Virus record (IMG/VR): IMGVR_UViG_3300032373_001148
Location: 1 to 57,158 of that record
Strand: one strand, 5' to 3'
From: a virus
Taxonomy: Duplodnaviria; Caudoviricetes
Length of the DNA stretch: 57,158 nt
Shown: positions 1,103 through 56,689 of the stretch, in pieces
Layout: each line of letters opens with the position of its first letter
How positions within the stretch are numbered: position 1 is the stretch's first letter
Notes under the pieces: model-generated
Database searches by the model: none
The model's input: the letters and a program-made list of their open reading frames with translations, nothing else
What the model was told of the DNA's origin: nothing
Program-made: the position numbers and the translations under genes

Positions 1103-1756
1103 TTATTTTCCGAGCATGGCTTTCACGGCATTGATCGCACCTGAAATTGGGTTCTTATGACCTGATTTCCCGATCTCTCGCAAGGTCATATAACCGCCAA
1201 TGATACCGGCAGCCCAAGGCACATAATCCCCATACATGACGGCATAGACAGAATCCCCACTGAAGAATTGCCCCGCGATGAGATCAAACTTGATAAGAAC
1301 GACGGAGCTCCCATCGCCCCTCGTCCATCCAAATCCAGCAGACACGGTGTTGAGAACAGCCAGAGTGCCGTCTACTGCAAAGAGAAACGCCATGGGGTAG
1401 ACCATGCCTCTGGTCAGTAGCCAAACCACCCGAGGGCGCGTTGTCATGCGTTCCTTGGCGATTTCTGCAGCAGCTTCAGGTCCTAGCTTCGCGATCATGG
1501 TATCCGTAATGTCGCCCTGTTCATTTCGCAACCGATCCGTCTCGGCCTTATACAGATCAACCTTAACCTTCATATGGTCTAACCAAGCCTGCGCCTGTTC
1601 GGGCGGCAAAGCATGTATTTCACTTTGCAGCTCTTCTGGTGTGGTTGCTGCCGATTGATTTCCGGTTACGGCCTCATATATTTCCTTTCCAGAATCAATG
1701 AGCCCTGGGGCTGCGGTCAACGCTTTGAAGATAAGCGGTAAAAACTGGATCATCAC
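1103..1756 (-). CDS. Putative holin-like membrane protein
   Basis: C-terminal hydrophobic segments ending GYMTLREIGK, resembling 3TM-holin C-termini; coupled to the endolysin gene. Confidence 0.55.
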   Translation of the reverse strand: MMIQFLPLIFKALTAAPGLIDSGKEIYEAVTGNQSAATTPEELQSEIHALPPEQAQAWLDHMKVKVDLYKAETDRLRNEQGDITDTMIAKLGPEAAAEIAKERMTTRPRVVWLLTRGMVYPMAFLFAVDGTLAVLNTVSAGFGWTRGDGSSVVLIKFDLIAGQFFSGDSVYAVMYGDYVPWAAGIIGGYMTLREIGKSGHKNPISGAINAVKAMLGK

Positions 1757-2220
1757 GCCCTCACATACTTGCGATAGTTCAAAACAAATTCAGCTACGGT
1801 TCCTGCTCCTTGCTCGGTGTTGTAATGGGCTTTCCAATATTGCCCCAATGCTTCCGCATCATCTGCGCTCGGGAGCGCATGGGGAACTCGCATGTAATGC
1901 ACCCGCGTCATCGCCACTGCATAGGGCATATTTCCCACCAACTGTTCAACCTTGGGCTTGTACGGTGCCAGCAGACGATCCACCCGGTTCTTAAGCTCTG
2001 ATCTGTAGGATAAATAGTTTTCCCAAATGTCATCATGCGTTGCCGGTTCCATTTGGCACACACCCAACGCAGGGCCCCCGCCAACTTGGCGCAAGTATGT
2101 CAAATGGCTTTCCTGAACAGCCGTCCCCACAATCAAATTTTCAGCAGCCTTTGAGTACAACGCCAAATGCTCAAGAGTTGGAATGACGATTTCAGCGGTA
2201 TATTGCTTTATATCCAACAT
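1753..2220 (-). CDS. Putative endolysin (lysozyme-like fold)
   Basis: QES catalytic-Glu-like motif followed by GPALGVCQMEPAT; end of the late operon. Confidence 0.7.
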   Translation of the reverse strand: MLDIKQYTAEIVIPTLEHLALYSKAAENLIVGTAVQESHLTYLRQVGGGPALGVCQMEPATHDDIWENYLSYRSELKNRVDRLLAPYKPKVEQLVGNMPYAVAMTRVHYMRVPHALPSADDAEALGQYWKAHYNTEQGAGTVAEFVLNYRKYVRA

Positions 2221-2241
2221 GCTATTTACCCATCCTCCAAT

Positions 2242-2270
2242 AAAAAGGGGCGGCTCCTAAGAACCGCCCC
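2242..2270 (-). terminator. Terminator closing the GGY-NN RNA
   Basis: GGGGCGGTTC-TTAG-GAGCCGCCCC-TTTTT on the minus strand. Confidence 0.85.
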
Positions 2271-2273
2271 GTT

Positions 2274-2350
2274 GGGCCTTGGCTTGACAAACCTTGCCTT
2301 ACCTAGCCTAGCACTGCCAGACCGGACCAAGCCGTGCCTGCCTTGCTGCC
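2274..2350 (-). repeat. Phased pentamer array (GGY-NN)n
   Basis: Minus strand: GGCAGCAAGGCA GGCAC GGCTT GGTCC GGTCT GGCAG TGCTA GGCTA GGTAA GGCAA GGTTT GTCAA GCCAA GGCCC; 10 of 13 in-phase triplets are exactly GGY. Confidence 0.9.
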
Positions 2351-2396
2351 GTTTCCGGCCCCGAGGTTGTAGGGAACTCTCGGCGTAACCCAAATT

Positions 2397-2885
2397 TTAA
2401 GCGCTGATCTTGTCTTGCGTCTGCTCAATGGCGCTGAACACAGCGGCCAGTTCTTCAATTTCCTTGTAGCGATCATGCCAGGTCTTGAGTTCCCGCCATG
2501 CCCGTTTCAGCACCTGCTGACGCATATCGGAATCGGTCATCGCGGTATGGATTGGCGCGTATCCACGATCATCGTTGCGCTTCACATTCACATATGCCCT
2601 GACGGGTTTGGGTGGATTGGTCTTCACCTGCTTGATTTCAACCGTGATCGACCGTATTAACGCTCGTGCTTGATCCAGACGGTATTGCTCAGCGGCCTTA
2701 GAATCATCCCATTCAAACGCTTTGTTCAGTGGTGATGATTTCTTCTTGGCATCAGCCAACACCGCTTCAGCAGATAACAGCCCGTTATGGCGCTTTTCCA
2801 ACCACTCAAGACGTTCACCAACCTTCTGAGCGTCAACCTTGATGGCGGCACCGTCTTTCCAGGAATAAACCTTCAAATCGCTCAT
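2397..2885 (-). CDS. Partner protein of the RAMP-like gene, function unknown
   Basis: 162 aa, ATGA overlap with the RAMP-like gene; motif SPLNKAFEWDDSKAAEQYRLDQARALIRSI. Confidence 0.75.
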   Translation of the reverse strand: MSDLKVYSWKDGAAIKVDAQKVGERLEWLEKRHNGLLSAEAVLADAKKKSSPLNKAFEWDDSKAAEQYRLDQARALIRSITVEIKQVKTNPPKPVRAYVNVKRNDDRGYAPIHTAMTDSDMRQQVLKRAWRELKTWHDRYKEIEELAAVFSAIEQTQDKISA

Positions 2886-3487
2886 GACGCACCATCCGCT
2901 TCACAAGCGACATGGAACATGCCGAAGCTGTTGCCAGACTTCTCGGGTCGATTTTCGCCGACACCGACATGGAATCCTGCAGTATTGAACAAATGAATTA
3001 CCTGTTCCGCCGACAAAACACTGGCGTTGTATCTCACCGTGAAAGTGGCTTTCCACTCCGGGAACTCGCCCCGGAACCTGATATCGGCGGTTCCTTGGCC
3101 GATTCTGACCATATCCTGACGGGGCCTCGGCTCACCGTCGATCTTCACCAGTTCGCCAATGATATGGAACGCACCGCGCGCCTGAACCATGGTAACGCCA
3201 TCAATGGCCCGACAGGCGCCAACGGCTGCCGCTTTAAACGCTACTGCTGGGAAGCCATATCCACCCTCTGGATGCGGATACAGACTGTCTTGATAATCTT
3301 GCTCGGGGTCTTTTGCCACTTTTGCCGTCTTGGCCCGCTTCATCTGCTTATCAAGCATTTGCTGCTTGGCCTTCTGCGACCATGCATGGCAAATCAGTGG
3401 GCTATCCCCGACCAATGTCAGCTCAAACGCTTGAATATTCAGCGCCGGAAGATCAACCTTCTCTGTCGTTTTTGCTGCCTTAGCCAT
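2882..3487 (-). CDS. Stand-alone Cas7/RAMP-like protein (Vipr-like)
   Basis: RAMP-like motifs in order: LTLVGDSPLICH, FPAVAFKAAAV, WKATFTVRY and a C-terminal Gly-rich loop GVGENRPEKSGNSFGMF. Confidence 0.75.
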   Translation of the reverse strand: MAKAAKTTEKVDLPALNIQAFELTLVGDSPLICHAWSQKAKQQMLDKQMKRAKTAKVAKDPEQDYQDSLYPHPEGGYGFPAVAFKAAAVGACRAIDGVTMVQARGAFHIIGELVKIDGEPRPRQDMVRIGQGTADIRFRGEFPEWKATFTVRYNASVLSAEQVIHLFNTAGFHVGVGENRPEKSGNSFGMFHVACEADGAS

Positions 3488-3731
3488 GATTGACCTCCAT
3501 CAGGTTGTCATTGGCCACAGAATTGTTAGGCATACACGCTTTCCACCCAAGAGTGCCGTAACGCCTTACGGTCTCAGAAAGTACCTTTCGATATTCAGCA
3601 CGCTGCCCTTGTGGGAGGCTACGCTCAATAGGACCGGGGATGCGTGCGCCAGTCTTATTGGCATCGCTGCCTACATTCCAATCCGCCCGTATCTCACAGC
3701 GGACGCGGAAAGCTCTTTTGCGGGTGATCAT
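3480..3731 (-). CDS. Small basic hypothetical protein, first gene of the RAMP operon
   Basis: RBS GGTGGAG; overlaps the start of the RAMP-like gene. Confidence 0.5.
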   Translation of the reverse strand: MITRKRAFRVRCEIRADWNVGSDANKTGARIPGPIERSLPQGQRAEYRKVLSETVRRYGTLGWKACMPNNSVANDNLMEVNHG

Positions 3732-3765
3732 TTTTGTTGCTCCACCTTGCTCTTTTGTCCATATA

Positions 3766-3801
3766 GTGATACAAAGGTATCACAAGAGATACGAAAGTCA
3801 A
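3766..3801 (-). promoter_or_regulatory. Promoter and operator of the RAMP operon
   Basis: TTGACT-N16-TACCTT on the minus strand; palindrome GTGATAC-N4-GTATCAC (3766..3783) covers the -10. Confidence 0.6.
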
Positions 3802-3839
3802 TTCTTTTATCTCAGTAATTAAACTTATGGATCAAAATA

Positions 3840-4091
3840 GTGATTTATGTAGATCAAATCAGAGCAGCTAGAGCAGCCTTAAAGTGGCAGCAATCTGAAC
3901 TTTCAGAGCGCTCTAGTGTCTCCATTCCCACAATTAAGCGCATCGAAGGTGGAACAGGCCCGGTCAAAGCAAACTACGACACCGTTACCAAGCTTGTTGA
4001 CGCCTTAGAGAAAGCTGGAATTCAATTTATTGATGATGCTGAAAAACCCGGCGTTCTTTGGAAGGGGCCCAAGCAGCGAGAGCTTCTTTGA
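3840..4091 (+). CDS. XRE/Cro-family HTH regulator
   Basis: QIRAARAALKWQQSELSERSSVSIPTIKRIE; divergent from the RAMP operon. Confidence 0.85.
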   Translation: MIYVDQIRAARAALKWQQSELSERSSVSIPTIKRIEGGTGPVKANYDTVTKLVDALEKAGIQFIDDAEKPGVLWKGPKQRELL

Positions 4092-4391: not shown

Positions 4392-7300
4392 TTAATCTGG
4401 ATAAATCACATCCAACTCCGCAGCGCGACCCCTTGCTTTCTTCGAAATGCGCCGTGCGCCATATCCCAGCACTTCTTGGCGAACTAGGCGCTTCAGGTAA
4501 CCTGGGTTAATAATGACGCGCTCATGAATAGGCCGATCAGCATTATATGCCATCAACTCGGACCTGATAACCTCAACCTCGTTGCGGTTTCCGCTGGCAA
4601 CCGCCCTAGCCAGGCGCGTGTAATAACGCCCCTGAAGGCCTGTGATTGATCGCTGCGCCCTTGTTTTGGCCCATTGCTTCTCACGTCGTCGCGTAATGCT
4701 CACGGGGGTGAAGCCTAGCGCCTTTAAGGCTACATCAAGGTTTGTGATTTCTTCCTTCGGTATCGCCACGCGGTCACGCGACTTGACGCCATCTGCCGCC
4801 CATCCATAGGCTTTTACAGGGTTGCTGGCGAAAGACGGCAACATCTGCGCTACGGCCTGGGTAGGTTCATCGTTTTTCAAATGCTCAATGGCGCGTTGCG
4901 GACGCCCGACCAGCATGTCATAGGAAACACCAAGCGCTTCAGCAGCGCGGTTCGTATCCTTCCCGAACAGGGCCAAAATTGTATCGGTTGGCAGGATGTT
5001 GCCCATATCCAACCGATGTGACATATCCGCGCCGGTCATGCGCAGAGCCCCGCGGTTAACGGTCTCTGCTAAAAGTGCCGAGTCCGACATCTCATAAACG
5101 ATTTCCCGAAGCTCTGATTCCAGATCAATCTCTTTGTCCGTCGCCCAGGCATAGATTGCCTCGAATAGATCCTTAAGATCATCGCCGAATGGTAAACCCC
5201 AAAGCCCAGCAGACGCCATCAAAGCACCAAACACATAGGCCAGAGCCTTCTTGCCTTCAGGGCCATTCTGCCGCGCCATGCGCCACATAAGTTCCAGATA
5301 GTTGACCGAGAACCCACGGAACTGGAACACCGCTGTCCCTGGCCATGCCCCGGCATCACGGAACCACGTCGGGCGGTTGCGCTTGCCCAGAACAAAATGG
5401 GTTTCATCGATCACCCATTCGGCAAAATCTACAGGCTTGGTGCCCATGCTGGCCCACAGAGCATTGTCCGTCAGAACCTCGTTGACCTTTTCCATCACGC
5501 CGGGGCGTCGGGCCAAGCGGTGGGCCGCGATAAAGGTGACAATGCGGTTGGCGCGTTCTGCCCCGGTGAACATCGAACCCGCAAATTCAACCGTGGCTTG
5601 GGTGCCTTTGCTGAATCCGCGACGGAACTTCTCAGAACCGTGGGCCACCCCCATTTGCTCCATCGTCACCAACGGAACCAAGGTGCCATCATCCCAGGCC
5701 CTTTGCAGGTCTTCCCGCACGTCTTCCGGGGCTTTTGATGGATCAAAGAACTCCATAGTCCCGCCATCCATGGTCGGCTTGCGCCATGCCATTTTAGCCA
5801 GGTCTTTATAGGCCCTGGTCATCTCAATGTTGATACGCCCGGCAGACGCAAATTGGCTCAGGTATGGCATGGTCGCCAGGGGCACCTGGGTCAAGTTGAC
5901 GCTCGCTGAGCTTGGATTTCCACTCAAATAAAAGAAGAAATTCAAGCTTCTCAGCCATTGAAGAGTTTCTTTCGGGCTTTGAACATACTCGATATAAACA
6001 TCCGCATATTTCCTGAGATTTGTTTGGTTCTGTGGAATTGACGCCACCGCCGTATCCAGCTCATCGCGTACTTCACGCCGCGCTAAATATGAAGAAATTC
6101 CGGTCACATAATCAGCGATCGATCGTTCAAAGTCAGGGCTATAGCCTGGGGTGTTCTTGGCGCCGATGAAATGCTTGCGAAACCCAACCTTCTTGCTGGC
6201 TTCGTTCAGCTGCTCACGTACGGCCTCCCATTCCGGGCCTTCAACTCGGCCCAGTTCGGCAAGGGCGTCGACATCACCGATCTTGATCCCGGCTGCTGCC
6301 AGATCGTTGGCGTTGACCATCTGGCGTGGGGCCTCAACGTCATACCCCTGTGATTTTGGGTACTGAGACATCAGCTTGCGGCGAACATCGATGACCTTCT
6401 TTCGATGAATCAGGCGCCCGACCGCACCGCCCACCTCAATCTTTTCGAAATGAACAAGATTGTTGCCCTTGTCGCGCACCGAAATGCTCACTTCGCCAAA
6501 ACGTGTAAACGGCACATATCCGCCCTTCTTGGCCTGCTCTATCTCAGCAACCAACTGGGCCACCTGGCGGGCACTGTCGGCCTCACGGTTCATATCCCGT
6601 GCCTCTTCAGGGGCTTCGCTCTTCTTGGCTTCCTGATAGAGTTCCTTGGCGTGGGCTTCCAGATCCTTAGCGGTTTCAGGGTCGCCCTCCTTGCCGAACC
6701 CCCATTCCCGCAGAACCTGCTGCTTATACAGGTCAAGCGCCTTGTCCATGGCACTGCGCACGGCGTGGTAAGCTTCAGACTGAGCCTTGTTCAGTTCGAC
6801 ACGCTCACCGCGCTTGCTCAGCGCGGCGTCTCCAAGCTTGTTGGTGACCCCAACCATAGGGCTATCAATGGCGCCACCCTCAAGCCGGCCGATTTCCAGA
6901 ACCTTGTGAACCTGGGCTTTATCTTCCAAATCCAGCTTGTGGTAGGGCTCAAGAATACGCGTCAAGTCTGCATTGATGGTGTCGCGGCGCTTGAACTGCT
7001 TCTCAACAGCCAACCATACTGGGGTGAACTTGCTGTAAATCGATGCGATGGTGCGCGGATGCACGATTGCATTTGCGAACCAGTTTAGGTCTTTGGCGTG
7101 AGGCACTGCCGGATCGGTGGCAAAATGCTTCAGTTCCTGTGTGGCCTTGCGTAGCGCACCGCGTTTTTTGGCTTCTGTATCCAGGGCTTCTACAGCACGA
7201 TCAGCAAAGCTTTCAGAGGCTGCCAGATCATCAATAGGATCATGAATGCTGAACTTGTCGCCAGAATCAGGAACGGCCCCGTTTCCGGAGCCGCTTACTT

Positions 7301-10300
7301 GTTCTGCTTTGCTTTGTTTGCCGCGATCAGTTCCCGTGCCCTCTTCTGGGCTTCTTGCTTGTCGCGCAGAAGATCCTTGATCTCCTCCTCGGTCAGGGGA
7401 CGAGGTCGTTCCTTCGGTGGGTGTGTTGGCTTTTCCATCATCAGACACGCTATATGAAATTCCATCGGCGGTATCCGACATTCTATCACGTTTTCCGACC
7501 TCGCCGCTTTCGATCTTGTCAAAGATATCCGAGGCGGATTGATAGCCCATACCATTCAAAGCATTGCCGAGACGTTCCAAGAACTGTTTGATTTTCTCTA
7601 GAATGCGACGAATTCCGGGTGGGAACTTCCCGTCTCCGTAACCGTATTCAGCCGATGCCTGGGCGACGGCTTCCTCAATCTTCTGTTCTTTGCTGGCATT
7701 TGGATACAGCTTGTCGATGTTATATTTTTCAATCCATTCACGGCGCGCCTTGTTGGCCAGTATGTTTTGCTCTGTTTTGTGAATCAGCCCCATTGAATAA
7801 AGCGCATGAATACCTTCGTGGCGGATGGTCTTTTCCGGGTTGCCCAGGTCAATCGCCACCTCAATGAGGTTCTGCGCGGCACGATGAACGCCGGTAACCG
7901 GAATTTTGCCCCGCCCTGGCACGTTGCCTAACAACTCATCGACCACCTGAACCTTGACCTTCGGCGCGATCCGCTTGGAAATGGTGATGATCTTTTGCGC
8001 CAGTTCTTCGCGATCGACGGACGTCTTCCAATCGTATTCGGCCAGGATAGCGTGGCTTTCGCCGCGCCCCAGCACCGGCTGGCCATCCACTTCAGAATTG
8101 ACGTCATCCAGCAATTGGCGGATACTGATAGATGAACCCGGTAATGGAATTGACCCAACTCCACTTGTGGTGCGGTCGTTCGAAGGACTCAGTCCCGTGC
8201 CGGGTTTTTCTATGTCCAAATGGTCGATATCGTACTGGCGCTTCATACCGTCACTGTGTTCGCGCACGGTGATTTTGATACGACGCACGTCACCATCCAT
8301 TTGTGCGGCTGCATAGAACCTGTGGATGCGGTTAATGTCTGCCCGTGTCTTGTTGTCCGAGACAGTTTCGACCAGGATCGCATGTTTCAGAAGATCGGGA
8401 AGCTTCCAGGCTAATGCAGCTCGAATTTTACTGCCTTCACCTGACAGGGTTTTCTTAATGCCCTTGGCGTAGAGATGAATATCCCAACCCGTATCTAAAT
8501 TCTGGTACTCACCGAGTATCCCATCAGGGGCAGAAATTTCCTGGTTGGCCAAGCGCCTTACGTCAGACGCATCTTCAACATCTTCGTACTGCTTCTTGAT
8601 CTCAACAATCTTGGTCTGAACCTTCCAGTCCAGCCCCTGCGCAACACCCGTCCAGTCGGGATCGTTGAAGACGGAGAACATCTCAACGCCTTTGTCGGTT
8701 TCCCGGTGCTCGATGGTGTTGAAGAGGTTATCAAAGGCCTCACGGATGCCATCCTGCTTCATTTCATCATTGGTTGGGTACGCACCGCTGGTCTGATCAA
8801 TGTTTGCGAGGTAATCATTGATCGCCCCCTTTTCGGAGAGACGGTCAACCATGTACTTCTCGAAGGCGCGCGCGGCTTTTTCGATGGTCTTATTCCAGTA
8901 CGGCTTAGACTTGGCCTTATCCAGCTCAACTGAGCGTTCCGCAAAGCCGCCCTTTGCCAGCGCCGTCTGCACGCCCTTCCATGCCTGATATACCTCGTCC
9001 CGCGCGGTTCCTTCAGTGCGCCGACGCGAACTCATATAGTCTTGATCTTGCCCCGTCGCCTTGCTTTTCCCGTGGTCATCTTGACGAGCAAAATAGTTAT
9101 CCAAACCATGCAGCCATTCATGAGCAAGCGAACCTGGACCGCTGCCCTTGGTCAGATTGATAACGACTTGACCCGGCTCATAGTGTGCCGCTGCCGCGGC
9201 GTTGCCACCAGTGCCCCGCGCTCCAAAGGCTAAGCCAAGTTCACCATTCAAAGAGATAGCTTTGGGGGGCACGCCGATGGTATCGGCTAAGTCCATAAGC
9301 GCATCATAAGCGCGGTTAAGGTCCGATTGACGGCGCGGTCCTTCAACATAATTGCCGAACTGCACGCCTCGGAACCCAAATGCCTCAGAGAATGTTTCCG
9401 GGGACACGTCACCATCACGCAGGTCTTGCCCGCTACGAGCCCGGTTCTCCGTTCCGCGCATATTAGGGCCCTTGCGCATATCGTCAATCTTGGCTTGAAC
9501 GTCATCACGGTTTTCGTCCAAATATTCCCGCGCTGCCGTTGGGGTTTCAAACCCCGCCTTTAGACGAAGAACCGTGCTGCGCACCTTGAACCCCAAGAAA
9601 ATATCGCTCGTCTTGTGGTCGCGATAAACATTAACAGCCGTGTATTTAGAACGTGTCTTTGTGCCCGTTTCTTCCTTTCCAGCAATCAGGTAAGGAATGA
9701 GTTTTTTGGCAAGTGAGATGGCCTCTTCTTCACTTTCCCGGTGCGTGTCTTGCATCGCGGGGTCATTGCCCATGGAATTGCGAACGGTACGGTTTTTGGA
9801 ATCCGTCAGGAACCAAAATGACTTGGACGGGTTGTAACGCTCACCTTTGAACATGCTGTAAGACGCTGAGCGGACGCTGTATCGAGCAGCCTTTTCCATG
9901 TCGGCTGGCGCAATGTCTTTAATGGCCTTCACCGTCGTCGGAATATCACCAAGCGTTGTTGCGTTTGCGACCTTCATCATGTGGTCGAGCGTCTTTGTGT
10001 CTACGTTCCCGCTGAGTATGTCATTTGCAAAACCGCGAAGAAGCTCAACCTGTTTTGCCCAACGCGCCACTTTCCACTTTGAACGAGGCTTGCTGGGGAT
10101 CGTGTTCCGGATTACAGCAATGTAGGCCATAACCTCACCCGAAACGCCTTCCTCTGCCAATTTCACGTAGTTCGGCTGAGGGAATGATTTGGAAAGTGGC
10201 GCGGTATTGACGTCAATACCCTCATCACTGAGGGCTTCTTTGAATCCGGTGAAGGTATCTTTGCGGGCACCGTGGATCTTTTCTCCAAAGTCCTCGATTT

Positions 10301-13300
10301 TGTCCTGCGGCTTATCGGTCACATCCGGCTGTTTCTGAGCATCAACGGGCTTTGCCTTGGGCGCATCAAACATATCCACCTGATCACGCGCACCGGTGTC
10401 AAAGAGACCGCCATCTGAGCCAGCATCCTTCTGGGAAGCCTTGGCCTTCATCGGTCCAGCCATCTTGCGCTCGGCCAGTTCTTTGTCGCTGATCTTCTCA
10501 GCGCCGGGGATAACGCCCTGTTCTGTGGCTCCGGCCACGTTGGTCACGGTTTCGGTGGTGGGTCGTTGTTCCCCAGAATCAGAAACCCCCGCGTTATCGG
10601 CGGGGGCTGTGTTAATTTTTTTGACCTGATTTGAGGCGTCTTTTCCGGGGCTTACGCCTGGGCGGTCTTGGCCTGCCGTTTCAGTTCCGCCATCTTGGCC
10701 TCTTTCGTCCGCATTGATTTGGCCAGTTCCTTGGCCTCCTTCTGGTCGGACGGCGATACCTTCGGGTTCACGGCTAGGCTGTCCAGAATTAAGAGCCTGT
10801 GCTTGCGCGATTTCATCATCAATCCTTCCGCGGTCTTCCAGCGTCAGAGGTTCACCTTCAAGTGTGGCGTAAATGTCTTCTGGGTTCAAGTTTTTCAATT
10901 GTTTTGCAAGCAGAACATCAAAATAGCTGTCGTCTGAATCCATCTGCGATTGAAGGTCGGCAATCTGCGCTTCGATGGACTCAGCCTCGCCCTTGCTCTC
11001 AAACTGATTAAGATATTCGTCTTCAGCCCGCAATTGAGCGGCTCGTTCTTCCATTACATGCGCTTCTTCTGCACGATAAACCTTCTCCCCGGCCAGTGCC
11101 CGGTCCAGAACCTCAAGGACTTGAGCCTCAGTCGGGCGCGGGGTTGTTTCCAAAGGCCCAAAATAGCCAGCCTCATGCAAGCGCTCTCCAGCGGCATCGA
11201 TACCCATGCCATTGCTGCGGATCAAAGCGCCGACACCAGGAATAAGCCGTTGCGCATTGCGGCCTTTCTTCAGGTCATGCCCTTCATCGTCACGAAGCCC
11301 ACCGTGGTCGGCAATAAACGTCAACATATCAACAGGGCCCTTACGCACGGGAATGCGGCTATAGCCCTTGTCGGTCTTGCGGATCACGCCCCGCGCGGCC
11401 AGGACGTCAAGCACGTCGCGCGCTTCTTTGCCCCTCAGACCCATTTCTTTGCCAAAATGCAACGGCGTCAGCTTAAGCCCCGGTGTCTTGGCATAGCGAA
11501 TACCAGCCCCATAATGGGTGGCCGGGTCAAAAGCGGCTGATTTCTGCGACTGTTCTTGATTTGTTTCACGGGAAACATTGGTCGGCTGCATATCAGCGGG
11601 GAGCGGATCATCAAGGGGGTCGGTTGCGGTCAGGTCCGGCTTCGTCTCAACCATATCCTTAAACGCCAGAATAGGCATGGTCATGGCCTGGGCCTGCTCA
11701 TCCATGCCCAAAGCCCGGTTGCTTCGGGCAACGGACAAGGCCTGGGCCTCGCTGTCGGCTCCCATAACGGCGATCTGGCGACCGTCCTCAGTTGTCAGAA
11801 CACGGACCTCATCCCCTTCACCAATGGTGATTGTGGCGATATCAGCGCCGGTAGCCGTCTTGATGGTTCCAATATCAGCCGATGCAATGAACTGGCTCTG
11901 TTGCCCACCCTCACCCATCTGGGTACTGACGTCACCCTTCTTGGTGCCCGTAGGTGCTTGTGGGGTCGACACGGGCGTGATCTGGATGTTCTGGCTGGAA
12001 ATGTCCTCAAAGGTGGCTGAGAAGTTCGAGCCATCGTCCAAGTGCAACTTAACGCCGGACCCGGCCTGTTCATCCTCATAGGCGTCAACAATGGTGCCCG
12101 TCGCCATCTTATCGCCGATCTGGACGGAAACCTTCGTGTTGACCTGGGGCACCCCAGCAGAACGCAAGATATCATTGGCGCTGCGGGTGGCTTCGCCGTC
12201 CTGGACAACGGATTTGCCTTGCTGAATCAGATCGTCGGGAATGGGGCTGGCGCGGTCGGCTTCGCTGAGTTCTGGGGCTTGTTGCGCGGCCTGTTCGCGC
12301 TTGCCAGTGGGGGCGGGCTTGCTCATAGATGCTGAACGACTGTGGCGGCCCATGACGAGACCGCCAATCGTTTCGTAGATCACGCCCGCGGTGAAGCCGA
12401 CACCAGCATTTTCACCTGTTCCGGTAAACGTGCCGCGTTCCTTGTCATAACCAACAATGTCGTTGGCGACCAAGTTTTCTAGGATGGATTGGCTCGCTTC
12501 CTGAATGGCTTCTTCGGTGCCTTGTTTCAGGGCGTCGACCACCAATCGTTTAGCCCCGCCGCCCGTCACCTTATCAAGTCGACTTAAGAACGGCGCAATG
12601 GGGACTGCTTCTGTCGTGCCGATCCACGCGCCGTAATCAGAAGCCTCAAGGGCTTGGCCAAGGTCCGCCCCGTTCTGAAGCGCATCTTCGAACATTGCTG
12701 ATTTTTCAGCGCCCGCACCGACAAAGGCCGTGGTCGCTAGAGCTGGCACACCACCCAAGGGAATGGTGGCCGCCGTTGTTCCCAAGAAACCTAATGTGCT
12801 ACCCAGTCCGCGCGGAAGCTTGGAGGCCAAAAACTCACCTTGATATTCTGGGTTTTCTGGAAAATTGTCACGCGCCCAATTCGACAGGCCATCGCCAGCC
12901 TGATAGGCGCCGGTATCCTTGGGGCTATCCTGACGCTCAAAGCGTGCGCGGTATTCCTGGCGCTGCTCTGGCCCCATACGAGAATACACCTGCATATGCT
13001 GGGTCGATTGAGGGGGGAGGTCGTTTTTCTTGGAAAATTCAAAGCTGGCCGGAAACGTGCTCAGGTCTTCGCCGTTATCGATGGCGTCGAACGCCGCATT
13101 CAAGCCTTGGTTGGTCTGAAAGGACGAGATACCAACGCTTTTAGCCACACCTGCGGGAATGTCCAAGGTGCCTTGGGTGGCGGCGTTCAACCCAGAAAGA
13201 AAGCGGCCTTCGGGAATGTCGCCGCTCGTGGCGGGAGCCTCAGCAAACGGATCATAGTCCACCTTCATGAGGCCCATGCCCACACCTTCGCCACTGGTTT

Positions 13301-13367
13301 CAACATCCGCAAACGGGTCGAAATCGACGGGAACCAGTCCGAAGGGTTGCTTGGCCATAGTGTTCAT
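4392..13367 (-). CDS. Giant polyvalent virion/ejection protein (LPD- and PLxRFG-like domains)
   Basis: 2991 aa after the ejection genes; LAFGARG...AAAHYEP...LAHEWLHGLD, second HExxH (RHEGIH), YVPFTRFG. Confidence 0.8.
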   Translation of the reverse strand: MNTMAKQPFGLVPVDFDPFADVETSGEGVGMGLMKVDYDPFAEAPATSGDIPEGRFLSGLNAATQGTLDIPAGVAKSVGISSFQTNQGLNAAFDAIDNGEDLSTFPASFEFSKKNDLPPQSTQHMQVYSRMGPEQRQEYRARFERQDSPKDTGAYQAGDGLSNWARDNFPENPEYQGEFLASKLPRGLGSTLGFLGTTAATIPLGGVPALATTAFVGAGAEKSAMFEDALQNGADLGQALEASDYGAWIGTTEAVPIAPFLSRLDKVTGGGAKRLVVDALKQGTEEAIQEASQSILENLVANDIVGYDKERGTFTGTGENAGVGFTAGVIYETIGGLVMGRHSRSASMSKPAPTGKREQAAQQAPELSEADRASPIPDDLIQQGKSVVQDGEATRSANDILRSAGVPQVNTKVSVQIGDKMATGTIVDAYEDEQAGSGVKLHLDDGSNFSATFEDISSQNIQITPVSTPQAPTGTKKGDVSTQMGEGGQQSQFIASADIGTIKTATGADIATITIGEGDEVRVLTTEDGRQIAVMGADSEAQALSVARSNRALGMDEQAQAMTMPILAFKDMVETKPDLTATDPLDDPLPADMQPTNVSRETNQEQSQKSAAFDPATHYGAGIRYAKTPGLKLTPLHFGKEMGLRGKEARDVLDVLAARGVIRKTDKGYSRIPVRKGPVDMLTFIADHGGLRDDEGHDLKKGRNAQRLIPGVGALIRSNGMGIDAAGERLHEAGYFGPLETTPRPTEAQVLEVLDRALAGEKVYRAEEAHVMEERAAQLRAEDEYLNQFESKGEAESIEAQIADLQSQMDSDDSYFDVLLAKQLKNLNPEDIYATLEGEPLTLEDRGRIDDEIAQAQALNSGQPSREPEGIAVRPEGGQGTGQINADERGQDGGTETAGQDRPGVSPGKDASNQVKKINTAPADNAGVSDSGEQRPTTETVTNVAGATEQGVIPGAEKISDKELAERKMAGPMKAKASQKDAGSDGGLFDTGARDQVDMFDAPKAKPVDAQKQPDVTDKPQDKIEDFGEKIHGARKDTFTGFKEALSDEGIDVNTAPLSKSFPQPNYVKLAEEGVSGEVMAYIAVIRNTIPSKPRSKWKVARWAKQVELLRGFANDILSGNVDTKTLDHMMKVANATTLGDIPTTVKAIKDIAPADMEKAARYSVRSASYSMFKGERYNPSKSFWFLTDSKNRTVRNSMGNDPAMQDTHRESEEEAISLAKKLIPYLIAGKEETGTKTRSKYTAVNVYRDHKTSDIFLGFKVRSTVLRLKAGFETPTAAREYLDENRDDVQAKIDDMRKGPNMRGTENRARSGQDLRDGDVSPETFSEAFGFRGVQFGNYVEGPRRQSDLNRAYDALMDLADTIGVPPKAISLNGELGLAFGARGTGGNAAAAAHYEPGQVVINLTKGSGPGSLAHEWLHGLDNYFARQDDHGKSKATGQDQDYMSSRRRTEGTARDEVYQAWKGVQTALAKGGFAERSVELDKAKSKPYWNKTIEKAARAFEKYMVDRLSEKGAINDYLANIDQTSGAYPTNDEMKQDGIREAFDNLFNTIEHRETDKGVEMFSVFNDPDWTGVAQGLDWKVQTKIVEIKKQYEDVEDASDVRRLANQEISAPDGILGEYQNLDTGWDIHLYAKGIKKTLSGEGSKIRAALAWKLPDLLKHAILVETVSDNKTRADINRIHRFYAAAQMDGDVRRIKITVREHSDGMKRQYDIDHLDIEKPGTGLSPSNDRTTSGVGSIPLPGSSISIRQLLDDVNSEVDGQPVLGRGESHAILAEYDWKTSVDREELAQKIITISKRIAPKVKVQVVDELLGNVPGRGKIPVTGVHRAAQNLIEVAIDLGNPEKTIRHEGIHALYSMGLIHKTEQNILANKARREWIEKYNIDKLYPNASKEQKIEEAVAQASAEYGYGDGKFPPGIRRILEKIKQFLERLGNALNGMGYQSASDIFDKIESGEVGKRDRMSDTADGISYSVSDDGKANTPTEGTTSSPDRGGDQGSSARQARSPEEGTGTDRGKQSKAEQVSGSGNGAVPDSGDKFSIHDPIDDLAASESFADRAVEALDTEAKKRGALRKATQELKHFATDPAVPHAKDLNWFANAIVHPRTIASIYSKFTPVWLAVEKQFKRRDTINADLTRILEPYHKLDLEDKAQVHKVLEIGRLEGGAIDSPMVGVTNKLGDAALSKRGERVELNKAQSEAYHAVRSAMDKALDLYKQQVLREWGFGKEGDPETAKDLEAHAKELYQEAKKSEAPEEARDMNREADSARQVAQLVAEIEQAKKGGYVPFTRFGEVSISVRDKGNNLVHFEKIEVGGAVGRLIHRKKVIDVRRKLMSQYPKSQGYDVEAPRQMVNANDLAAAGIKIGDVDALAELGRVEGPEWEAVREQLNEASKKVGFRKHFIGAKNTPGYSPDFERSIADYVTGISSYLARREVRDELDTAVASIPQNQTNLRKYADVYIEYVQSPKETLQWLRSLNFFFYLSGNPSSASVNLTQVPLATMPYLSQFASAGRINIEMTRAYKDLAKMAWRKPTMDGGTMEFFDPSKAPEDVREDLQRAWDDGTLVPLVTMEQMGVAHGSEKFRRGFSKGTQATVEFAGSMFTGAERANRIVTFIAAHRLARRPGVMEKVNEVLTDNALWASMGTKPVDFAEWVIDETHFVLGKRNRPTWFRDAGAWPGTAVFQFRGFSVNYLELMWRMARQNGPEGKKALAYVFGALMASAGLWGLPFGDDLKDLFEAIYAWATDKEIDLESELREIVYEMSDSALLAETVNRGALRMTGADMSHRLDMGNILPTDTILALFGKDTNRAAEALGVSYDMLVGRPQRAIEHLKNDEPTQAVAQMLPSFASNPVKAYGWAADGVKSRDRVAIPKEEITNLDVALKALGFTPVSITRRREKQWAKTRAQRSITGLQGRYYTRLARAVASGNRNEVEVIRSELMAYNADRPIHERVIINPGYLKRLVRQEVLGYGARRISKKARGRAAELDVIYPD

Positions 13368-32073: not shown

Positions 32074-32832
32074 TTAGTAACCGACTGAGGCATCCCCGGA
32101 AGCGCCGGAAGTAAAGCCATGAGTCTTTGGTATTTCGACGGCCATCCGAGCAAGACCGGATGTTTTTTGGCCTTTGGCGTTAACGGCAGGTGTCACCAGA
32201 TACCGGGTGGCATCCATAAGGTGATCAAATTTTTTGACGATTTTTCCGTCTTCATCGCGGTGGTATTGGCGATATTCGTCACACCAGTTCAATAAACTGC
32301 TGAACACCTTGAGGCGCCCCGTTGAAAGCCGTTCCCATACGTTGTAAATACCCGCTTCAACCGCGTTGTTGGCTGGCTCCAGATTGAGATCCAGCGCGCG
32401 ATATGTCGCGATAAGCTGTTCCCCATCATCTTGAGATCGGCCATTTGCCGCAGGATCAATCACGCCCGGTATCCATTCGCCCCGCGCTTTGATGGCAGTG
32501 GCGTGAATGCTTGGCTCGGCCTGTCCTCGATAATGTTCGGTGTAGAGGTAGATAACATCCGCCTCACGGTCCCACGCACCCCATACGGCGGCGGTTCTGT
32601 TCCAGCCCACGTCCAGCGCGTAACAGCGTGCCCAGTGGGGCGGGATTATGATTGGATCAATGACAAATTCACTTTCCGCAACGGGATAAATTGCCCCCGC
32701 GCCAAGTGTTGGGATGCCTTTTTCTCGCGCATCTCGTTCATGCGGGGAAAAAGTTGCAATGATTGTCTTTCGTTCTTCGTCGGTATAATGGTCGACATCG
32801 TGAATTGTCATGCGCGTGACGTGCCGGCTCAT
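32074..32832 (-). CDS. terL: Terminase large subunit, C-terminal nuclease part
   Basis: ALDVGWNRTAAVW, IDPAA, FDHLMDATRY (RNase H-like). Confidence 0.85.
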   Translation of the reverse strand: MSRHVTRMTIHDVDHYTDEERKTIIATFSPHERDAREKGIPTLGAGAIYPVAESEFVIDPIIIPPHWARCYALDVGWNRTAAVWGAWDREADVIYLYTEHYRGQAEPSIHATAIKARGEWIPGVIDPAANGRSQDDGEQLIATYRALDLNLEPANNAVEAGIYNVWERLSTGRLKVFSSLLNWCDEYRQYHRDEDGKIVKKFDHLMDATRYLVTPAVNAKGQKTSGLARMAVEIPKTHGFTSGASGDASVGY

Positions 32833-33569
32833 TTCATTGCCCTCATATCAACGTCACTGAGAAACATCCGAACAACGTCAGACATGCCCTGAAGTGGCGT
32901 GAATGTCACAATTGTGAAGATGCCTGCTTGTCCGCGCTGCGTTCTGGTACGACCTTCTGAGTAGATGTCCATGGGCGGTTCTTCATCAAACCAAACCCCG
33001 TCGATTGTTGGGCCTTGCCACTTTTTGCGACCCTTCTCATAGGATTTAAAAAACAGAACGGACTCGCCAGATTGTATGTCCCCACCACCGCCATGCCTGA
33101 CGGTAATGCTATCTAGCAAATCGGCGACACCCCTTGCCCTCGTGGTATCAATAATGGCATCGCCAGGGATTGCGCCTGTTCCCCAAGCATCTTCTCGCTC
33201 TGGCGGTCCAACCAGAATGTTTTGTGGGTTGTCTCGGGTACTTTCTCCAGATTCACCGGATGCCCAAAACTTCACTGGCTTCTTGAATTCCATCCCTTTC
33301 CACCAGTCTGGATAGCGACCGGTTAGATGGATGGCCCATTCATTTCCACCAGACAGGGTTTTTCCCAATTGGTTTCCAGCCATGAACAAGCGCTCGTTAT
33401 GCTCAGCTCCGGCGTTATGGAATTCGATTTGTTTAGTGTAAGGACGGTACGCGGCCAGTTTGTTTCTGTCCGTCCTTCGTTTTAACTCCGTGATCAGTGC
33501 CGCCCGTTCCTCCAAGCACGTCCGTAAGCGCGTTATCGAGGTCTCTGATGCGCTGAATAAGCTGCTCAT
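32829..33569 (-). CDS. terL: Terminase large subunit, N-terminal ATPase part (P22 gp2-like)
   Basis: PYTKQIEFH, Walker A AGNQLGKT, Walker B VWFDEEP, TFTP; start uncertain. Confidence 0.85.
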   Translation of the reverse strand: MSSLFSASETSITRLRTCLEERAALITELKRRTDRNKLAAYRPYTKQIEFHNAGAEHNERLFMAGNQLGKTLSGGNEWAIHLTGRYPDWWKGMEFKKPVKFWASGESGESTRDNPQNILVGPPEREDAWGTGAIPGDAIIDTTRARGVADLLDSITVRHGGGGDIQSGESVLFFKSYEKGRKKWQGPTIDGVWFDEEPPMDIYSEGRTRTQRGQAGIFTIVTFTPLQGMSDVVRMFLSDVDMRAMK

Positions 33570-41018: not shown

Positions 41019-41383
41019 GATGCACCCCCGTCCAGTCCGGGATACTTCAACATCGGCATGGAAAAGTTCTTCAGAACTACGTTCGCGGCCCGGATCACTT
41101 CAATGGTTGTTGTCGGCTGACCATCCAGACGCCAGCCCCCAGCTGTGGCTGTGTCTTCAACGGCGCGGCCCATCAAGATGATCACCGCCCGGTCACTGGG
41201 GGTCAGTTTTTCCCCAAGCATGGCCCCGCTCAGCATGGCGTAAATGGCGCTTGTCACCGCCGCCGGAGGCCAGCCGATCTTCTGCATATCCGCTGAAATG
41301 GTGTCACCATCCACACCACGCGCCACCATGGAAAACAGATGGTTCTGGGCATGCAGGGTGAAGGCGTCGACGGGTTCGGTCAT
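41015..41383 (-). CDS. Hypothetical protein
   Basis: Coupled ORF. Confidence 0.55.
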   Translation of the reverse strand: MTEPVDAFTLHAQNHLFSMVARGVDGDTISADMQKIGWPPAAVTSAIYAMLSGAMLGEKLTPSDRAVIILMGRAVEDTATAGGWRLDGQPTTTIEVIRAANVVLKNFSMPMLKYPGLDGGAS

Positions 41384-41943
41384 TCTGCGGCCTCCAGGGG
41401 ATTGAATTTACCGACTTCATTGCCCCAGGCAGTCCATCCGGTCCGCTCGCATTGGCGCGCAAACACTTCGAGGTACGGGCCATCCCATAACCCTTCGATC
41501 AGGCCATACGTGGACTCTGGTTTGCGAGAATGCTCCCTGGCCATAGCTTCAATGTAATTGCGGGTGCTGCGGTTCCTGATGATTGGCTTGCCGCGGGTGC
41601 CAACCAAAAACGGCTCCGTCGCAGAACGAAAAATGTAACCGGTCCCAAAAGCTGTTTTGCCGTGCTTTGTCGTTTTGCGCCACGCACCGCCTGACTTGTA
41701 GGTAAACCCCCACGCCGCCATCAAATCCAATGCGACATTGATCATCGGCCACGTTGCCCACATGAAGCATACGCAATCTGGGGCACCGATCATGCCAACC
41801 GGTATGCGCTTGAGATCATCGACTCCCATACAAGCGTAATGAGATTGCGCGCTTTTTTTCTCGCCCTTCGATGAATACAATTTGAAGGACCACGGAGGGT
41901 CTGCGTAAATCACCCCAAAGTTACCAGATGGAAAGGTCATCAC
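41380..41943 (-). CDS. MT-A70 family adenine methyltransferase
   Basis: VIYADPPW, FMWAT, REHSRKP, LEVFAR, WGNE. Confidence 0.9.
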   Translation of the reverse strand: MMTFPSGNFGVIYADPPWSFKLYSSKGEKKSAQSHYACMGVDDLKRIPVGMIGAPDCVCFMWATWPMINVALDLMAAWGFTYKSGGAWRKTTKHGKTAFGTGYIFRSATEPFLVGTRGKPIIRNRSTRNYIEAMAREHSRKPESTYGLIEGLWDGPYLEVFARQCERTGWTAWGNEVGKFNPLEAAE

Positions 41944-53286: not shown

Positions 53287-53525
53287 TGGACTTCGCAGCC
53301 CAGGCCATCACGAACGCCCAAAACCTCGCGGCGAAATACAAAAATGAACTGGAACAGGAGCGCCAGGAAAATTGGTACCTGACGCAGACGCTTAAATTCT
53401 ACGCCGATGCGGATGCGTGGAAACCGCGGGGTCATTCACAAATGGATAGCGACACGATCCCCGCGCATCGCGACAAGGGCGAAAGAGCGCGTTCGGTTCT
53501 GTCCGTGGAGAGTGACACAAAATGA
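53286..53525 (+). CDS. Hypothetical protein
   Basis: LKFYAD...DKGERAR; coupled. Confidence 0.55.
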   Translation: MDFAAQAITNAQNLAAKYKNELEQERQENWYLTQTLKFYADADAWKPRGHSQMDSDTIPAHRDKGERARSVLSVESDTK

Positions 53526-55454: not shown

Positions 55455-55772
55455 ATGAATTACACCGTAAAAACAGCCGCTGAGCGCCTCGGGTTCAGTT
55501 CTGACACAATCTATAACATGCTCAATCGCGGTCAACTTGGTTGCATCCGTAGGCCAAACTGCGCTATTCGGATAAAGGAAGAACATATTCTCGCGTATGA
55601 GGCGCAATTTGAATGCCCCGCCCACAACGGTCAAAGCCAGAATACCAACTCACCCGAATTGATGGGCGACGGAACTGGTACGTCCGCTACAGCGAACCGG
55701 GCAGCCGCCGCAGCCAAGTTAAAAGCACAGGTGTCCCACTTGCAGATCGTGTCGCAGCGGAGGAATGGGTAG
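55455..55772 (+). CDS. xis: Excisionase-like HTH protein
   Basis: YTVKTAAERLGFSSDTIYNMLNRGQL; directly upstream of the integrase. Confidence 0.75.
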   Translation: MNYTVKTAAERLGFSSDTIYNMLNRGQLGCIRRPNCAIRIKEEHILAYEAQFECPAHNGQSQNTNSPELMGDGTGTSATANRAAAAAKLKAQVSHLQIVSQRRNG

Positions 55773-56689
55773 CAGCCTTAAAGGCCGCCGATGAAGCCAT
55801 TCCTGAAGGCGCCACCATTGCGGAGATCGTTGACCGTTACCTAGAAGACAAAAAAGGTGTTCGCACCATTGTTAAGATGAAGTCTTTTGCCAAGCCGCTA
55901 AAGGCTTACATGGGGGATCGAACCCCAGACCAAATCACAAAATCCCTACTGGCCGGATACCTACCCCACCGCAAAAAGATGGTTCCTGCGGTACGCCAGG
56001 AGCTTGGGCTTCTTATTCAGGCCCTAAATCATGCTGACCGCCAGCCAGGGGAAAAGATCACCCTTCCTGCCGCCAAACCTCCAAGAGAGCACTTTGCCAC
56101 GCGTGAGCAAGCCCAGGCGCTTCTCCAGGCAGCAACGGAACACACCCGCCTCTATCTGCTTATCGCCATGGCCACAGGGGCTAGGATGGGCGCTATATTG
56201 GATTTAACATGGGATCGGGTCGATGAAGACCGGGGTATCCTCGATTTTAACAACCCGGACATTCAAGTTTCAAAGAAGCGCCGCGCCGTCACGCCCATAT
56301 CCAAAGAGCTGGTAGCAGCCCTTCGTGATCAACGTGAACGCAAGGTTGCGGATACCGTTGTTGAATATGGTGGGAAGCCGGTGGCCAATATCACAAAATC
56401 ATTTGGCCAGGCGGTGAAGAACGCCAAGCTGCCAAAATGGCTCACGCCACACGTTTTGAAGCATAGCGTGATCTCTTGGCTGGCCGAAGATGGCTGGACA
56501 GTAGACCAGATTTCAGACTTTACGTGCACACACCCGAACACGGTGCGCCGGGTCTATCGCAAAGTAAATCCTGAAACCTTGAGGGGGATGGCTGATTCCC
56601 TGTCATTTGGCTCATTAGTGCCAACGGTGTCGGCACTAACTAAAAACAAGAAAAAGCCTAAAACCCGCAGAAACCTTGGTGGGCGGTGA
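55613..56689 (+). CDS. int: Tyrosine integrase
   Basis: TGARMGAILDLTW, TPHVLKHS, H...VRRVY; ends within the att core. Confidence 0.93.
   Translation: MPRPQRSKPEYQLTRIDGRRNWYVRYSEPGSRRSQVKSTGVPLADRVAAEEWVAALKAADEAIPEGATIAEIVDRYLEDKKGVRTIVKMKSFAKPLKAYMGDRTPDQITKSLLAGYLPHRKKMVPAVRQELGLLIQALNHADRQPGEKITLPAAKPPREHFATREQAQALLQAATEHTRLYLLIAMATGARMGAILDLTWDRVDEDRGILDFNNPDIQVSKKRRAVTPISKELVAALRDQRERKVADTVVEYGGKPVANITKSFGQAVKNAKLPKWLTPHVLKHSVISWLAEDGWTVDQISDFTCTHPNTVRRVYRKVNPETLRGMADSLSFGSLVPTVSALTKNKKKPKTRRNLGGR
56614..56636. promoter_or_regulatory. Putative integrase arm-type site (right arm)
   Basis: Inverted copy of 1014..1036. Confidence 0.6.

Follow-up and report, generated by a model that had tools for sequence, protein, structure and literature searches.

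The 57,158-nt DNA analysed here (the window), an IMG/VR provirus record (IMGVR_UViG_3300032373_001148), carries a compact minus-strand locus that, judging from its sequence, very probably belongs to VIPR (Viral Interference Programmable Repeat), a kind of system described in preprints 10.64898/2026.04.26.720920, 10.64898/2026.04.26.720927, 10.64898/2026.10.15.759431 and 10.64898/2026.10.21.760802. The locus consists of vipr, a gene for a 201-amino-acid (aa) RAMP-like protein; a gene for a 162-aa accessory protein, which we call Vap in a positional sense because its family cannot be equated with vap1-6; and, 3' of the accessory gene's stop codon, a non-coding unit built around a run of GGY-NN pentamers (Y, pyrimidine; N, any base). 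An initial annotation of this DNA, made from the letters alone, had proposed a coupled operon of a RAMP-like protein and a partner, and the two same-strand open reading frames (ORFs) do share an ATGA overlap. The coordinates of these and other features, given as positions in the window, are collected in Table 1.

The non-coding unit opens with a 5' handle and closes with an intrinsic terminator, and between these lie 13 in-phase pentamers in the order GGC-AC GGC-TT GGT-CC GGT-CT GGC-AG TGC-TA GGC-TA GGT-AA GGC-AA GGT-TT GTC-AA GCC-AA GGC-CC. GGY is present in ten of the 13, and TGC, GTC and GCC take its place in the others. A count of 10 is the best that any phased 13-unit stretch of the window attains; block-shuffled windows (n=200) average 5.14 with a maximum of 7, and every other site, on both strands, stays below 8 of 13. 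The initial annotation had described a 5' hairpin, 13 phased units and a terminator: the units and the terminator are borne out, but the single hairpin was wrong, as two are present.

Table 1. Features of the VIPR locus, its predicted target gene and other genes of the window.
Feature	Position	Strand	Description
vipr	3487..2882	-	201-aa ORF; single-RRM RAMP protein, SUSP1 Vipr homolog
vap-like accessory gene	2885..2397	-	162-aa ORF; 4-nt overlap (ATGA) with vipr, translationally coupled
Non-coding unit	about 2390..2242	-	3' of the accessory-gene stop codon
vrRNA 5' handle	2390..2336	-	GGTTACG, hairpin 1, hairpin 2, short linker, GGCAGGC junction
Hairpin 1	2383..2361	-	CCGAG / 13-nt loop AGTTCCCTACAAC / CTCGG
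Hairpin 2	2359..2348	-	GCCG-GAAA-CGGC
GGCAGGC junction	2342..2336	-	precedes/overlaps the start of the pentamer tract
vrRNA guide tract	2338..2274	-	13 in-phase pentamers
Intrinsic terminator	2270..2242	-	2270..2247, then TTTTT; 10-bp stem, 8 G-C pairs, 4-nt loop
Large polyvalent protein gene	4392..13367	-	2991 aa; Pfam LPD5, LPD3 and LPD1 above cut-offs
Self site homologous to the predicted target	5914..5951	+	peptide NFFFYLSGNP on the minus strand; 19/26
Site matched by the sibling guide (L001/G036)	5138..5101	-	peptide DKEIDLESELRE; 21/26, 19/20 with the first 10 units
83-aa ORF	3731..3480	-	8-nt overlap with the vipr start
Xre-type helix-turn-helix gene	3840..4091	+	divergent from the VIPR operon
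Large terminase	32074-33569	-	two adjacent ORFs (246 aa, 252 aa)
Type II DNA methyltransferase	41380-41943	-	orphan-looking
Type II DNA methyltransferase	53522-54436	+	orphan-looking
Integrase	55613..56689		adjoins tRNA-Val

In published VIPR loci an ancestral RAMP of ~20 kDa (Vipr) is encoded together with a single accessory gene, vap, and with vrRNAs that comprise 9-16 GGY/NN pentamers; seven types are named, with SUSP1 and P. fulva in type II (10.64898/2026.04.26.720920). The initial annotation had pointed to VIPR, and the architecture of the window does match the one described in that preprint. As in SUSP1, the order on one strand is vipr-vap-vrRNA, the system is phage- or prophage-borne, the guide falls within 9-16 units, and Vipr is about 200 aa long (201 aa here; 195 aa for the SUSP1 coding sequence (CDS) and 202 aa for its PDB chain).

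Homology to Vipr emerges from a profile built on 60 diverse relatives of the 201-aa protein (alignment A1). Searched against all PDB sequences, this profile has a sole match, 36pp_D, "SUSP1 Vipr protein" (E 4.4e-14), with profile positions 23-196 aligned to chain residues 4-189; without the profile, the single 201-aa sequence finds SUSP1 Vipr at E 0.097. A comparison of A1 with the 195-aa SUSP1 Vipr CDS by hhalign gives 98.3%, at an identity of ~28% that is confined to the 67 C-terminal columns aligned by hhalign. An AF2 model of the protein (pLDDT, the predicted local distance difference test, 94.5) is predicted to have a Cas7/Csm3-type RAMP fold: Foldseek returns 58 PDB matches at E<=1e-3 (best E 1.4e-5, TM (template modelling) score about 0.4-0.5), and among the matches listed every one is a CRISPR RAMP-containing entry (Csm, Cmr, Cas7-11 or type VII), with Csm complexes at ranks 1-5. 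The initial annotation had asked how the protein compares with Cas7/Csm3, and model and profile together place it among the RAMP proteins, nearest to SUSP1 Vipr. The protein is without a model in Pfam, PADLOC and NCBIfam and falls in an unannotated PHROGs family; its relatives number 2652 in a word-indexed search, and an exhaustive search, counted as representatives of 50%-identity clusters, finds 3634 at E<=1e-3.

The residues expected to hold the RNA are largely shared. Cryo-electron microscopy of SUSP1 shows one protomer per repeat, with GGY buried and NN displayed, and G1, G2 and Y3 held by H17, R138, D177, W178 and R179, of which W178 stacks on G2 (10.64898/2026.04.26.720927). Window residues H34, R139, E178 and R180 align with SUSP1 H17, R138, D177 and R179, and both the thumb arginine R139 and R180 are invariant across the 60 A1 sequences. 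The two proteins share the G-loop motif GVG[DE]xRP along with the thumb arginine, and both the window's version, GVGENRP, and R139 are conserved, as expected of a Vipr protein. The position of SUSP1 W178 is occupied by N179 in the window. The loop reads GENRP in the window protein and in P0002, P0003 and P0006, and GEWRP in the remaining 16 aligned relatives; in this alignment N179 thus reads as the oddity of a small subclade, with W in most relatives.

The same arrangement recurs widely. We compared 44 related loci, 13 on viral contigs and 31 on genome contigs from many phyla (L002 and L003, and L022 and L023, are near-duplicates), and scored a tract as present when at least 6 of 8 phased units were GGY. 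A same-strand GGY-NN tract accompanies 41 of the 44 and an opposite-strand tract one; L011, L015 and L040 have no tract at this threshold. A same-strand homolog of the 162-aa protein is likewise found in 41 of 44, and is missing from L002 (at the contig end), L010 and L015. Parsing all 45 loci, window included, yields 145 in-phase runs in 42 of them, mostly 10-11 units long, with 1599 units in total, of which 63% are GGC, 23% GGT and 14% other, and all 16 NN dinucleotides occur. In the closest relative, L001, Vipr is 83% and Vap 76% identical and the 5' element is near-identical, with the NN different throughout the tract. A search of homologous loci for tracts with variable NN had been suggested in the initial annotation, and it is answered by these counts: GGY is conserved, NN is unrelated between relatives, and vipr, the accessory gene and the same-strand tracts are strictly linked.

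The start of the tract is often marked by a recurrent element: 70 of the 145 runs, spread over 31 loci, are directly preceded by GGCA, creating a GGCAGGY junction with a 4-nt step. The GGCAGGC junction sets the register of the guide tract. Other delimiters exist, for example GGCCGTC in L002/L003. Placement and size of the array vary within the clade (L002, L003, L012, L013, L042, L043, L009, L017), including loci with many guides (L003 has >2 kb of tracts), loci with the array between vipr and vap, and loci with the array upstream of vipr.

The 5' handle upstream of this junction is shared by nine sequences (alignment A4: the window, L001, L007, L008, L028, L029, L031, L032 and L036). Its helices are paired in 96.2% of cells against 71.5% in shuffles (0 of 500 shuffles reach the observed value), six of the nine pairs have changed on both sides, and controls with slid partners pair in 25-53%; a single-sequence minimum-free-energy fold of the window shows the same two hairpins. 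A covariance model of the handle (R1), searched among 46 sources, finds its nine training sequences only. Hammerhead or other self-cleaving ribozymes are reported to flank vrRNAs in VIPR types I and V in the preprints. A reading of the window's 5' element as a hammerhead ribozyme is unsupported, with no Rfam match to known models: across the window Rfam reports tRNA-Val as the sole family, and a scan of 2150..3900 at E<=10 gives just four or five chance-level rows, with no ribozyme among them.

The accessory protein is harder to place. Pfam, PADLOC and NCBIfam offer no family for it; a DUF3545 assignment, at 20.2 bits, lies under the Pfam cut-off of 25 and was rejected. A sequence-profile search of the PDB with the 162-aa family returns nothing under E 0.08, and its ESM Atlas matches are viral hypothetical clusters only. 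No Foldseek match of the AF2 model (pLDDT 93) attains E<=1e-3; ArsR/BlaI/MecI winged-helix regulators head the weak rows, at E 0.4-1. In a wide VIA-align search the C-terminal helices give the best Z, 5.8, and residues 1-113 give winged-helix-like rows at Z ~5. These weak rows suggest, as a hint rather than a finding, a winged-helix-like N-domain with a helical hairpin after it. Similarity to SUSP1 Vap1 is at background (BLASTP E 9.1; hhalign probability 0.08%), and by sequence the accessory family of this clade appears unrelated to SUSP1 Vap1.

Further differences separate the locus from SUSP1 type II. The window is without vap1, and it carries one guide where SUSP1 has four. The SUSP1 vrRNAs end in a constant 3' tail, as read from the SUSP1 genome sequence, which is described as a pseudoknot (10.64898/2026.04.26.720920, 10.64898/2026.04.26.720927); this tail has no counterpart in the window, which instead has the covarying 5' double hairpin, the GGCAGGC junction and a plain terminator. 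Since systems of this kind are already published, the novelty implied by the initial annotation falls away and the locus reveals no new principle. In their main text, as far as it was available, the VIPR preprints do not include the 5' handle with its junction, this Vap family, or reciprocal guides directed at a polyvalent-protein gene of kin; their supplements may cover the first two.

What such a guide would recognise can be asked with the published code, in which NN pair with double-stranded DNA and one target base in three, usually the codon wobble position, is skipped (10.64898/2026.04.26.720920). We applied it as a 1-nt skip, replacing each GGY by one wildcard base, to the window guide AC-TT-CC-CT-AG-TA-TA-AA-AA-TT-AA-AA-CC. 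Inside the window the best match, 19 of 26 bases, falls in the large polyvalent protein gene; shuffled guides reach 16-20, and 8 of 200 shuffles equal 19. Scanning metagenome contigs for exact matches to units 1-9 retrieved 25 loci, all but one of which score 19-24/26. The exception among them, contig L069, extends to a perfect match over the first 11 units (24/26 overall) and encodes a homolog of the window's 2991-aa gene (identity about 84% across 208 aa). Its matching site is homologous to the 19/26 site of the window, the peptide being NFFYYLSGNV in L069 and NFFFYLSGNP in the window. In L069 the guide-sense and coding strands are opposite and the skips fall on codon wobble positions; the sites in the window are also in the wobble-skip frame. 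Because the search pattern had fixed 18 of the 26 bases, only the extension, the gene identity and the frame count as independent evidence. Among the 26 scan loci, ORFs were listed for L069 only, and site frames were translated for L046 and L058. An exact scan of viral contigs with units 1-10 gave 0 matches. Two other high scorers were judged chance: L058 (24/26, metagenome; G+C fraction 0.29) and L046 (24/26, the sole viral-contig match with units 4-13; G+C fraction 0.44), in both of which a stop codon interrupts the wobble frame.

An unbiased target test is provided by a sibling provirus, G036, the whole record of the locus L001. The window guide finds its best match in G036 at the homologous polyvalent-gene site, with 21/26, a score that none of the guides shuffled by base (n=200) or by unit (n=200) reaches. 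Conversely, the G036 guide has its best match in the window within the same polyvalent gene (0 of 200 shuffles reach it). On its own phage, each guide scores 19/26. The cross-phage matches appear with a 1-nt skip only, skips of 0, 2 and 3 yielding 16-18/26. At the G036 site the peptide is the same as in L069, with serine encoded by TCG rather than AGC, a change that loses two matches. Restricted to the leading 10-11 units, the usual run length in this clade, the window guide (11 units) scores 20/22 against G036 and 18/22 (0.82) against its own gene, and the G036 guide (10 units) scores 19/20 against the window and 17/20 (0.85) against its own gene; 0 of 300 shuffles equal either cross-phage score, and 1 of 300 equals each self score. 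The window allele fits its own guide less well because two of its amino acids have changed and a Leu has switched codon family. In both phages, then, non-self is always better matched than self, and SUSP1-family guides are alike in that their self matches lie below non-self (10.64898/2026.10.15.759431).

The source phage is temperate and integrated at tRNA-Val, next to which the integrase gene lies. The window encodes a CI-like repressor, RecT, two methyltransferases, DnaB, terminase, portal and major head protein, and the giant polyvalent gene is followed by the VIPR operon and then by lysozyme-like and membrane proteins. A flanking histidine kinase, 81% identical to that of a Magnetovibrio sp., suggests a Magnetovibrio-like alphaproteobacterium as the host; this kinase was found in 0 of 33 genomes of one order searched for Magnetovibrio-like genomes.

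We propose, with a probability of roughly 0.87, that the locus is a VIPR system of a temperate phage with its guide aimed at the sibling polyvalent gene. By homology to SUSP1, Vipr protomers would polymerise along the RNA, one per unit, burying each GGY and displaying NN, as the initial annotation had envisaged for its RAMP-like protein. The exposed NN would pair with double-stranded DNA, skipping every third target base, and the bound filament would block transcription; the outcome reported for VIPR is transcriptional silencing of competing phages or satellites (10.64898/2026.04.26.720920). The sequence matches would direct the guide to a conserved stretch (NFFYYLSGNV, wobble skipped) near the 3' end of the relatives' polyvalent gene, so that the single guide appears to be aimed at the giant injected-protein gene of sibling phages. 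Superinfecting or co-resident siblings whose polyvalent gene is silenced may be excluded or handicapped, and the sibling provirus would carry the reciprocal arrangement. As in SUSP1, the predicted targets are wobble-aligned, 1-nt-skip sites in competing mobile elements; there they are a satellite recombinase or lysis-lysogeny regulators, unlike the sibling allele of the phage's own polyvalent gene predicted here. That the sibling polyvalent-protein genes are the physiological target is a narrower claim, to which we give odds only a little better than even.

Several observations weigh against this interpretation. Three of the 13 window units lack GGY, and N179 stands where SUSP1 has its G2-stacking tryptophan, W178. 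The L069 match is partly built into its search pattern through the 18 fixed bases. When the 145 guides were run against a 640-kb compiled sequence set, matches of at least 0.8 numbered 24 for real and 19 for shuffled guides; there being no general signal at this scale, it is two sibling phages plus one metagenomic fragment that carry the target claim. Self-avoidance is not clean, since the self scores of 0.82 and 0.85 over 10-11 units exceed the 0.8 match cut-off used in the VIPR preprints. Finally, a promoter scan found no sigma-70-like promoter within 2100..4000, so the vrRNA is probably processed out of the operon transcript, which is an assumption.

The main alternative is a different function, in which the guide would regulate the phage's own polyvalent gene and the genes co-transcribed downstream, keeping a late gene shut in the lysogen or setting its timing, with the matches in relatives as by-products of homology. 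The best in-window 1-nt-skip match does fall in the polyvalent gene, the 11-unit self match and its counterpart in the sibling are rarely equalled by shuffles, and the VIPR operon lies ~700 nt downstream of the polyvalent gene on the same strand. Both guides nonetheless fit the other phage better at every length compared (21 against 19/26; 20/22 against 18/22; 19/20 against 17/20), the window guide is perfect over 11 units on a third allele, that of L069, and the 13-unit self match is within reach of shuffled guides. The P. fulva-clade and type III/V guides that were checked in 10.64898/2026.04.26.720920 showed no self-targeting at >=80% on their source contigs. We therefore regard own-gene regulation as unlikely, and read the initial annotation's proposal, silencing of competing phages or elements, as fitting the predicted targets, with the reservation that the matches would also allow action on the phage's own gene.

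Less probable still is a working VIPR system whose real target, such as a satellite or an unrelated host prophage, lies outside the data searched, which would make the polyvalent-gene matches incidental. The published SUSP1 guides mostly match a satellite (10.64898/2026.04.26.720920), and the exact scans of viral collections gave here 0 and 1 match, the latter chance-like. Coincidence of this sort is hard to reconcile with two independent sibling guides that each match the other phage best, in the same gene and in the wobble-skip frame, at scores that none of 200-300 shuffles equal.

We give very little weight to an origin as a CRISPR-Cas remnant or offshoot, whether as a lone Cas7 plus degenerate array or as an RNA serving to decoy the host's CRISPR. 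Cas7 polymerises along guide RNA with a fixed step, and Csm3, Cas7 and Cmr6 resemble the window protein in their RRM-based RAMP fold with a thumb and a glycine-rich loop, so the fold does match. Identity to them is 7-16%, however, and the sole solved relative found by sequence profile is Vipr and no Cas7. The window is without Cas5/6/8/10/11 or adaptation genes; the initial annotation's statement that no CRISPR array or cas1/2/3/5/6/8 gene was seen in it agrees with a Tandem Repeats Finder (TRF) run across the whole window, which found no CRISPR-like array, with Rfam, and with PADLOC, which matched no cas model among the 35 ORFs scanned. The 5-nt period with its fixed GGY is a vrRNA signature, unlike a repeat-spacer array: Class 1 CRISPR complexes have a 6-nt step with one flipped base, whereas VIPR has a 5-nt step, three buried bases and a gapped 2+1 DNA code. 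That the pentamer tract is a functionless chance or compositional feature of a 3' untranslated region and terminator can be dismissed almost outright, unless all the assemblies share an artefact, for despite its three degenerate units it exceeds all 200 shuffles and, across many phyla, 41 of 44 loci have a same-strand counterpart beside their two genes.

Returning to the proposed VIPR system aimed at sibling phages, a more far-reaching version of it is possible, though we hold it only tentatively and think it the less likely outcome. Here the clade would represent a distinct VIPR architecture, perhaps outside those described so far, with a 5' double hairpin, a 4-nt-step GGCAGGC that sets the filament register and an accessory family of its own, whose guides police the polyvalent-protein alleles of sibling prophages; each phage's own allele would have escaped through amino-acid changes or Ser/Leu codon-family switches, amounting to a reciprocal, allele-level arms race in a gapped code.

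For the study of VIPR the locus offers several points of entry. It confirms from raw sequence that the Vipr family is very large and spread across phyla, with members in metagenome-assembled genomes of many of them. The covariation-supported 5' handle is a second way of capping a vrRNA, alongside the 3' pseudoknot, and bears on how filaments nucleate and measure length. The two sibling prophages also supply natural pairs of guide and predicted target, whose matched, partly matched and self alleles form a series for mismatch tolerance and self/non-self discrimination; in the available text of the VIPR preprints, including 10.64898/2026.10.15.759431, we found no figures for either.

The Vipr-Vap clade also reaches into cultured phages of Mycobacterium smegmatis and Gordonia, which could serve as laboratory models. 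Window Vipr matches 34 phage records (27 Mycobacterium, 5 Gordonia, 1 cyanophage and 1 Pseudomonas). In Mycobacterium phage Brocalys (NC_031262, L078), gp45 is 43% identical to window Vipr, gp46 is homologous to window Vap (hhalign 99.6%), and GGY-NN guides are delimited by GGCAGGC. Unlike the window, Brocalys carries a multi-guide array, upstream of gp45 and beside antirepressor and excisionase genes (locus about 1630-3073), and no 5' handle of the window type turned up there, covariance model R1 not having been applied to Brocalys. Both gp45 and gp46 are annotated hypothetical.

Two matches of at least 0.9 stand out in the 640-kb set, the window guide on L069 and a guide of L044, a Mesorhizobium locus, on the vap gene of L032. 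The latter, an 11-unit guide at 3682.., matches the L032 vap gene at 3400.. with 20/22, at the conserved motif GLIRAVVAIY and in the wobble frame.

Next to the VIPR operon, the 83-aa ORF that overlaps the start of vipr is familyless and has a homolog in 0 of the 44 related loci; the operon has either gained it locally or it is no gene at all. Across a 108-nt intergenic region from the VIPR operon lies the Xre-type gene, whose product has weak similarity to restriction-modification control proteins and to phage repressors, and may regulate the operon. Elsewhere in the window are the two methyltransferase genes of Table 1 and a divided large terminase, whose two ORFs correspond to the N- and C-terminal portions of terminase families; a split gene, a frameshift or a misassembly could account for them.

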